Origin: an uncultured Muribaculaceae bacterium
GTDB taxonomy: Bacteria > Bacillota_I > Bacilli_A > RF39 > UBA660
NCBI GenBank assembly: GCA_964430695.1
Contig: CAYSFO010000002.1
Location: 1 to 60,281 of the forward strand
Direction: 5' to 3'
Length of the DNA stretch: 60,281 bases
Shown here in pieces: positions 57,008-57,419 of this stretch; the stretch's first letter is position 1; each line of letters opens with the position of its first letter. A program made the translations under genes and the position numbers. The notes beneath the pieces were generated by a model that saw only the letters and a program-made list of their open reading frames with translations, was not told the DNA's origin and ran no database searches.

Positions 57008-57169
57008 TATTATCACCTATAAATATTATAACAAAAGATAAGAAATGAATTCAATATATTATACAGAGTTTGACAACAAAAAAAGAATTTTATTTCTTCT
57101 CCTAACAGACAACTAGATTAGTCTTACTACTTATTCTTACAAGTACAAACAGCTTAGATTTTTATATTT

Positions 57170-57182
57170 GGGGGTTTTGGAA
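57170..57182 (+). repeat. GGGGGTTTTGGAA motif, copy 3 of 3
   Basis: Exact 13-mer. Here it lies in the 5' leader, 3 nt upstream of the SD of peptide gene C. Confidence 0.8.
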
Positions 57183-57199
57183 AGTAGGAGGAGGCAGTT

Positions 57200-57286
57200 A
57201 TGAACAAAGAATATGTGCTTATTTTAGTATATGTACTTCTAGTAATTATAATTATGTTAATCGTTGTTATTCTTCGATTAGTATAA
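57200..57286 (+). CDS. 28-aa hydrophobic peptide, candidate type I toxin (copy C, divergent)
   Basis: MNKEYVLILVYVLLVIIIMLIVVILRLV. SD AGGAGGAGG (57186-57194). Antisense to all neighbouring genes. Confidence 0.5.
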   Translation: MNKEYVLILVYVLLVIIIMLIVVILRLV

Positions 57287-57385
57287 AAAACAGACGCTAA
57301 CCAAAAACATGCATAAATATACACTTTAAATGGTATAGCGTCTTTAATCCAAACGTAAGGCGTTATCAAAATTGGTAACACTTAC
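57285..57385 (-). ncRNA. candidate antitoxin sRNA C (~100 nt)
   Basis: Minus-strand TTGTAA-16-TATAAT (57419-57392). Long stem AGACGCUA(U)ACCA...UGGUUAGCGUCU (57343-57292) plus GUUUUUUAU, ending at the peptide stop codon. Confidence 0.4.
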
Positions 57386-57419
57386 AATTTAATTATAGTC
57401 TTTTTTATATAAATTACAA

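Follow-up and report, generated by a model that had tools for sequence, protein, structure and literature searches.

The analysed stretch of DNA, referred to here as the window, comprises 60,281 nucleotides of a genome of 1.49 Mb (29% GC, assembled in 127 contigs). Between tsaE and an XRE gene, an earlier note made from the letters alone had described a 28-codon open reading frame (ORF) with a strong Shine-Dalgarno (SD) sequence, facing a minus-strand unit in which a promoter precedes a long stem and a terminator that ends at the stop codon of the peptide. All of these elements are present, at the positions collected in Table 1. The minus-strand promoter was recovered by a consensus scan as well, with 10 of 12 matches. 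Beyond the stem, the minus strand continues with G and UUUUUU (57291-57285), a run that overlaps the stop codon; viewed on the plus strand, the same hairpin is internal to the mRNA and has no U-tail. A terminator scan that allows loops of up to 8 nt missed this stem only because its loop has 27 nt. The minus-strand RNA from 57385 to 57283 folds with -29.9 kcal/mol (z = -4.78 against shuffled sequences), and its 5' hairpin is the complement of the segment X'.

Table 1. Elements of the module and its neighbour in the window (strand relative to the window; RNA ends are predicted)
Feature	Position	Strand	Remarks
Pyrimidine run UCUUCUCCUA	57095-57104	+	includes CUCCUA; complementary to the SD; specific to the window copy
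Remnant GUCUUAC	57121-57127	+	3'-most 7 nt of the 5' clamp arm; family homology begins; pairs with 57355-57361
Family-type anti-SD CUUAUUCUUAC	57130-57140	+	pairs with the SD
G-rich leader motif GGGGGUUUUGGAA	57170-57182	+	apex of the SD/anti-SD hairpin; most copies (C)AGGGGGUUUUGG
Shine-Dalgarno AGGAGGAGG	57186-57194	+	5 nt upstream of ATG
Peptide gene (putative toxin)	57200-57286	+	intact, 28 codons, hydrophobic; product MNKEYVLILVYVLLVIIIMLIVVILRLV; stop TAA 57284-57286
Predicted antisense sRNA (putative antitoxin)	57283-57385	-	about 100 nt; 5' hairpin, then terminator hairpin; ends inferred
Hairpin	57292-57343		11-12-bp stem, 27-nt loop; arms AGACGCTAACCA 57292-57303 and TGGTATAGCGTCT 57331-57343
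X', 3' arm of the mRNA clamp	57355-57381	+	most of the partner missing in the window copy
sRNA promoter	57419-57392	-	TTGTAA 57419-57414, 16 nt, TATAAT 57397-57392
XRE/HTH_3 gene, 67 aa	57420-57623	-	PF01381, 1.6e-14; last gene of the surface-protein operon; outside the module

The unit is not confined to this locus. A scan of the same genome for SD-preceded hydrophobic mini-ORFs found peptide paralogues on contigs C22 (MKKEYVLILVYVLLVIIIMLIVVILQLV) and C3 (MNKENMLRIVYILLVIIIMLIVVILRLI), whose units are 93% and 84% identical to that of the window, and alignment of the three loci revealed conservation from window position 57121 to about 57430. The scan also returned an A/B-type family of 22-28-aa peptides and a third, 30-aa family; the genome thus holds at least three such peptide families, which agrees with the claim of the earlier note that the unit differs in sequence from its modules A and B. 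BLAST and profile searches extended the three loci to a superfamily with variable peptides in a constant frame. At least eight full copies lie in the same genome (on C3, C22, C18, C7, C59, C28, C16, and C21), along with two degenerate copies and fragments that consist of the 5' part only (C41, C5), of the 3' part only (C63), or of modules cut by a contig end (C46, C39). The cut module at C46:1-152 has the promoter and X, together with a leader that shares 95% identity with window 57123-57186, and that at C39:13547-13601 has X' and the sRNA-promoter end at 98% identity; the two contig ends suggest a fourth copy of the window's subtype, the middle of which is unassembled. Many contigs of relatives also end within modules.

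Among related genomes, we collected 48 distinct full copies from 16 genomes of the genus. By BLAST, 18 of the 30 same-genus genomes had a diverged form of the window module, and none of six genomes from other genera of the family did. The recurrence of the unit, including that at the C22 and C3 loci, far exceeds what chance would give. A pattern scan of 185,579 species genomes gave matches in metagenome-assembled genomes (MAGs) labelled uncultured Bacilli or 'Tenericutes', Mycoplasma sp. CAG:776, and Ca. Onthocola; the isolate names of the MAGs suggest gut sources (mouse, rabbit, chicken, and human). The family profile was present at 59 of 80 genome-collection loci among the matches listed, and was absent from the matches in unrelated taxa and from both viral pattern matches, the latter being chance hits. 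No family match was found in the plasmid and phage collections. Searches of Rfam, at the gathering threshold and at E <= 10, returned only noise for the module; Pfam, NCBIfam, PADLOC, and PHROGs had no match for the family peptides, exact look-up of six peptide variants in a collection of 15 billion predicted proteins returned none, and a literature search yielded no paper that links type I toxin-antitoxin systems with RF39. The module family is unannotated and undescribed, and multi-copy in uncultured gut Bacilli.

A full copy reads, on the plus strand, as follows. Phased T-tracts (TTTTG-N6-TTTTGTCGAA) are followed by a promoter TTGAAA-17-TATAAT, the leader segment X (CTCGTGTTACC..GTGGCGCCTTAC), the anti-SD, a G-rich motif (GGGGGTTTTGG), the SD with ATG, and a peptide of about 28 codons. 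An A-run and the hairpin come next, then X' (GTAAGGCGTTATC..GGTAACAC), an invariant CTTAC, and the reverse complements of the -10 and -35 boxes of the sRNA promoter. The phased TTTTG-N6-TTTTGTCGAA motif was seen directly upstream of the toxin -35 at C22:21724-21768, on C46, C59, and C18, and in relatives, but the window copy does not have it; an UP element or a binding site for a regulator are possible roles.

The window copy lacks the beginning of this order. It matches the family profile at positions 124-429 of about 456, whereas the other full copies start at positions 3-51. All 48 other full copies have TTGAAA-17-TATAAT and a 5' arm of about 25 nt, and the window copy is without both. Its homology to the family begins inside the 3'-most 7 nt of X, at 57121-57123, and the stretch from 57030 to 57122 has no homology to family leaders. 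We considered 57085-57112 as a remnant leader of another subfamily, and found no homology. The copy is thus truncated at its 5' end, with promoter and clamp arm gone and the junction as given by the 127-contig metagenome assembly, and this accounts for the statement in the earlier note that no convincing promoter could be identified for the peptide mRNA. We likewise found no convincing plus-strand promoter upstream of the window ORF.

The truncation coincides with a break in the chromosomal neighbourhood. We located tsaE in 28 of 30 other genomes of the genus; nucleotide homology to the window stops at about 57012-57100 in 27-28 of them, and none of 28 same-genus genomes has a module at tsaE. 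On these grounds we take the break to be the edge of a lineage-specific island. Judged from these comparisons, the truncated module, the XRE gene, and the surface-protein genes form a lineage-specific segment whose left edge cuts the leader of the module. Many contigs of relatives end about 2-3 kb beyond tsaE, and the tsaE locus across the genus appears to be a repeat-rich, variable region.

It is unlikely that the window copy is instead a complete, working module of a subtype of its own, with a promoter upstream of 57095 and the run UCUUCUCCUA as its anti-SD. The ORF, the SD, and the sRNA gene are all intact, and a TTGACA hexamer lies at 57070-57075. The earlier note had proposed that CUCCUA at 57099-57104 could sequester the SD, and such a pairing is predicted: when the region is included, 57095-57104 forms a 10-bp helix (two G·U) with 57185-57194 in the minimum-energy fold, a match with a roughly estimated chance occurrence of about 0.03. 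Such a copy-specific anti-SD would be odd if the region were never transcribed, which counts against a silent copy. However, no acceptable -10 follows the TTGACA hexamer (it would be TTTCTT), and the sole plus-strand promoter-like matches, at 56986-57013 and 57372-57399, are at chance level (8 matches against 6.8 expected). The region also has no counterpart in any other leader of the family, the other 48 full copies use a conserved promoter and clamp that are both missing here, and the conserved X', deprived of X, keeps a partner of 7 bp only. As an anti-SD of the family, CUCCUA was ruled out, being specific to the window copy and outside the conserved unit; it could act only given an upstream promoter.

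The peptide consensus is M-(N/K)-K-E-x4-5-LLVII-x-ML-x-V-x-ILRLI, with 28 residues in 27 of 48 copies and a hydrophobic core of about 22 residues, in keeping with the small (<60 aa) membrane-spanning peptides of type I systems. An SD-like purine run precedes the start codon in all copies, and TTG replaces ATG in some. Codon position 2 is the most conserved (entropy 0.40, compared with 0.89 and 0.95 for the others), codon differences have a synonymous/non-synonymous ratio of 0.45 in frame and of 0.19 and 0.03 out of frame, and 85% of the substitutions in the core exchange one hydrophobic residue for another. By these measures of sequence, the family ORF bears a coding signature. The ORF is broken in 6 of the 48 copies, which keep the RNA elements.

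Whether the product is a toxin is a separate matter, and the pair might be real without being a toxin-antitoxin system: the peptide could be a small membrane protein that does no harm, such as one that modulates a membrane complex, and its dose would be tuned by the antisense RNA. We regard this as quite improbable. The peptide is indeed a putative toxin, the peptides of the family have no homology to known toxins that we could find, and a sequestered SD combined with antisense control is known for non-toxic small proteins too. Yet the genome of about 1.5 Mb carries at least eight full and several decayed copies at unrelated loci that differ between species, a pattern of selfish or addictive modules and not of a housekeeping subunit. 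The retention of RNA elements beside broken ORFs points the same way, and layered repression by clamp, anti-SD, and antisense RNA is typical of lethal genes.

The minus-strand unit has the marks of a gene of its own. In 46 of 51 copies the sRNA -10 box lies exactly 10 nt before GTGTT (minus strand). Its sequence is TATAAT in 33 of the 51 and a one-off variant in most others. A TTG of the -35 box is found 16-18 nt upstream of the -10 in 40 of 51 copies, and the spacer is unconserved. Boxes fixed in position around an unconserved spacer are the signature of a working promoter. The hairpin helix has 8 pairs with compensatory changes, and the A-run and the stem abut the stop codon in all copies. 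The flanks of the hairpin are asymmetric, with A at 6.8 of 9 positions on the 5' side and T at 2.1 of 9 on the 3' side, so that the hairpin acts as a terminator for the minus strand only. From a start about 4 nt outside the clamp, the predicted sRNA extends as far as the stop codon of the peptide without entering the ORF, and is therefore fully complementary to the 3' UTR of the mRNA. Its first ~27 nt have the same sense as X, making the starts of the sRNA and the mRNA near-identical. Taken together, the comparative sequence evidence points to an antisense gene with its own promoter and terminator, as is characteristic of type I systems.

The earlier note had named, as one finding that would overturn its proposal, a minus-strand RNA that is merely the 3' UTR and terminator of the XRE gene. 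That this RNA belongs only to the XRE/surface-protein operon and has no role in peptide control is very unlikely. In the window the stop codon of the XRE gene (57420) does abut the -35 box of the sRNA, with no further terminator before the hairpin is reached. Read-through of the operon therefore very likely ends there, and its 3' UTR may be an additional source of the antisense sequence. Nevertheless, the -10/-35 boxes and the hairpin keep their arrangement in about 46 of 51 copies, the A-run and stem are placed at the stop codon of the peptide throughout, and the nearest paralogues have no XRE neighbour at all, the C3 copy lying beside lexA and the C22 copy beside pheT. The conserved promoter and these XRE-less paralogues indicate that the sRNA is an independent gene.

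What the earlier note missed is a conserved clamp between the two ends of the toxin mRNA. We aligned the 48 distinct full-length copies from 16 genomes (alignment A1), and RNAalifold kept one structure, in which X and X' form a helix of 17 bp; 9 of its pairs show compensatory double changes. Pairing in the two clamp helices amounts to 96.1% and 96.8%, compared with 29-43% when the partners are slid, and the covariation of the clamp (0.333) was reached by none of 500 shuffles (0.205 ± 0.007), although the copies are related and these statistics overstate their independence. Among the non-Watson-Crick cells in the clamp, G·U outnumbers A·C by 144 to 10, and in 48 of 48 copies the duplex is stronger on the plus strand (-32.0 versus -23.7 kcal/mol). 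The G·U excess and the stronger plus-strand duplex argue that pairing has been selected in the peptide-sense RNA and that both arms are present there. The mRNA must therefore run about 95 nt beyond the stop codon, passing the hairpin, to reach X', after which there is no plus-strand terminator. In the window copy, without X, the closing helix is reduced to 7 bp. Just outside the clamp, CTTAC (A1 columns 335-340; window 57382-57385 and flank) is nearly invariant though unpaired in the consensus structure; it corresponds to the first transcribed bases of the predicted sRNA (GUAAG).

That the family is a non-coding, MITE-like mobile repeat with terminal inverted repeats of about 27 bp and only incidental ORF and promoters is scarcely credible, since, for all that the copies are numerous, dispersed, often at contig ends, and bounded by imperfect inverted repeats, the mismatches in those repeats are G·U on one strand only, which indicates selection on RNA and not on DNA, the ORF bears a coding signature, and the phage and plasmid collections gave no match, the two viral pattern matches being chance.

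The leader contains a putative further layer of control. The minimum-energy fold pairs the SD with leader nt ~29-45, directly after X and equivalent to window 57130-57140, in about 33 of the 48 copies. The mean unpaired probability of the SD was 0.28, and it was 0.22 when the 3' UTR was blocked in silico as a mimic of bound sRNA, a comparison across copies that are not independent. The effect being small, a switch of SD accessibility driven by the sRNA was dropped, and decay of the mRNA is favoured over a translational switch as the main antitoxin effect. Pairing of the G-rich motif with the ACCAAA of the hairpin was also dropped, as copies that lack ACCAAA keep the motif (alignments inspected by eye).

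From these results we consider it likely that the module in the window is a copy, truncated at its 5' end, of a multi-copy family of uncultured gut Bacilli that is undescribed and resembles type I toxin-antitoxin systems. The strong promoter of a full copy would give an mRNA of about 280 nt, whose first ~25 nt (X) would pair with X', about 70 nt past the stop codon, and clamp the ends together. The anti-SD directly after X would sequester the ribosome-binding site of the 28-residue membrane peptide. A convergent promoter would give the sRNA of about 100 nt, which would start just outside X' and stop at the stop codon. By shielding both ends, the clamp may keep the putative toxin mRNA stable. 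The sRNA 5' end, being of the same sense as X, would compete with X for X', and the first contact between the two RNAs would probably be made through the large loop of the shared hairpin. Opening of the clamp could then produce a duplex of about 100 bp for RNase III, and the toxin mRNA would be destroyed; an RNase III is encoded in the same genome (C51:3949-4572). The window copy keeps the SD, the ORF, X', and the whole sRNA gene. With the toxin promoter gone and no more than 7 nt of X left, its peptide gene is probably silent or poorly expressed. Its sRNA gene appears expressible, and may cross-neutralise the C22 and C3 paralogues, which are 89% and 88% identical in the sRNA region and 97% and 85% in the ORF.

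Among known systems, T1TAdb (PMC8594479) describes Gram-positive type I families in which the antisense RNA is convergent to the toxin mRNA and overlaps its 3' part. The window family resembles bsrG/SR4, txpA/RatA, bsrE/SR5, and yonT/SR6 of Bacillus subtilis in having a small hydrophobic peptide gene with a convergent, 3'-overlapping antisense RNA, and for the convergent 3' overlap as in TxpA/RatA, BsrG/SR4, and BsrE/SR5 we found evidence in the clamp covariation and the G·U polarity. In bsrG/SR4, whose SD is partly sequestered, the terminator loop of the antitoxin makes the first contact and the resulting duplex promotes decay (PMC3834814); by analogy, this is the closest mechanistic counterpart of the window family. 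RNase III is reported to silence such toxins in B. subtilis (PMC3531473). No peptide or RNA homology to these four B. subtilis systems, or to the systems compared below, was detected in Rfam (E <= 10), Pfam, or NCBIfam. Unlike the B. subtilis systems, the sRNA of the window family ends at the stop codon and stays out of the ORF, a 5'-3' helix supported by covariation closes the mRNA and has its 3' arm inside the antisense target, and sRNA and mRNA begin with near-identical sequences of about 27 nt.

The end-to-end pairing has its precedent elsewhere. The hok mRNA is, according to Franch et al. 1997 as cited in PMC8594479, inert and stable through long-distance 5'-3' pairing (tac-fbi). With hok/sok of plasmid R1 and aapA1/IsoA1 of Helicobacter pylori, the window family shares 5'-3' pairing of the mRNA and an SD sequestered in the leader, and a hok-type fold-back was found across the family in the 17-bp closing helix with its 9 compensatory pairs. 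The peptides had no match to the Hok Pfam family, and the likeness is an analogy of design, not homology. Both of these Gram-negative systems require 3' trimming for activation, and their antisense RNA binds at the 5' leader (the mok region in hok/sok) or the start region; in contrast, the antisense RNA of the window family lies entirely downstream of the ORF and is predicted to target the clamp's 3' arm. Like par of Enterococcus faecalis pAD1 (Fst / RNA I - RNA II), the family encodes a peptide of about 30 residues, and its two RNAs converge on one hairpin and have repeats close to their 5' ends. The par terminator is bidirectional, and direct repeats make the two RNA 5' regions complementary at the toxin start site. 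Unlike in par, the hairpin here acts on the minus strand only and the repeats are inverted, with pairing within the mRNA, so that the two 5' regions have the same sense and would compete for one partner. No peptide matched the Fst Pfam family.

We suggest, tentatively, an antitoxin that works by 'clamp competition', in which the 5' end of the sRNA copies the 5' end of the mRNA and displaces X from X'. Were this so, the end-to-end helix would unzip, the mRNA ends would be opened to exonucleases, and the 3' UTR would become a substrate for RNase III; orphan sRNA genes such as that of the window copy would be trans-protective antidotes for paralogous toxins. To our knowledge, this mode of antisense control is undescribed for type I systems, and we know of almost no type I toxin-antitoxin systems outside cultured model bacteria. 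The family would unite two designs seen separately before, the 3'-overlap layout of Gram-positive systems and an mRNA clamped end to end as in hok, and the position of the 3' arm inside the antisense target makes the mechanism directly testable. This reduced-genome, uncultured gut lineage carries more than a dozen unannotated copies per 1.5 Mb. The window copy would exemplify module decay at the edge of an island, with the toxin promoter lost and the antidote gene kept.

Several further observations were made on the surroundings and on the other small peptides of this genome. The cassette of the XRE gene and surface-protein genes (window 57420-60281) occurs in about ten or more copies in the genome, among them C59:1486-2192, C63:3545-3812, and copies on C48, C34, C45, and C23, and the surface-protein genes of the island carry hypervariable segments. 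A module was seen at the 3' end of the XRE gene in the window and on C59, and a decayed one on C63. Members of the third family, with SD-preceded 30-aa hydrophobic peptides, lie at C3:9353-9445 (minus strand; MEKRIFILKVLKYICTILLLSILLILVIKK) and C7:18110-18202 (minus strand; MNIKTFILKFLKSISIILLLSTLLVLAIKN). Finally, two adjacent small hydrophobic ORFs at C36:491-742 (minus strand) encode MNQCCNRNGIGPAMILVLFILLIIIVGAFI and MMIIVLFILLAIIFSGYFAY, a pair that appears to resemble YjcZ-type small sporulation/membrane proteins.
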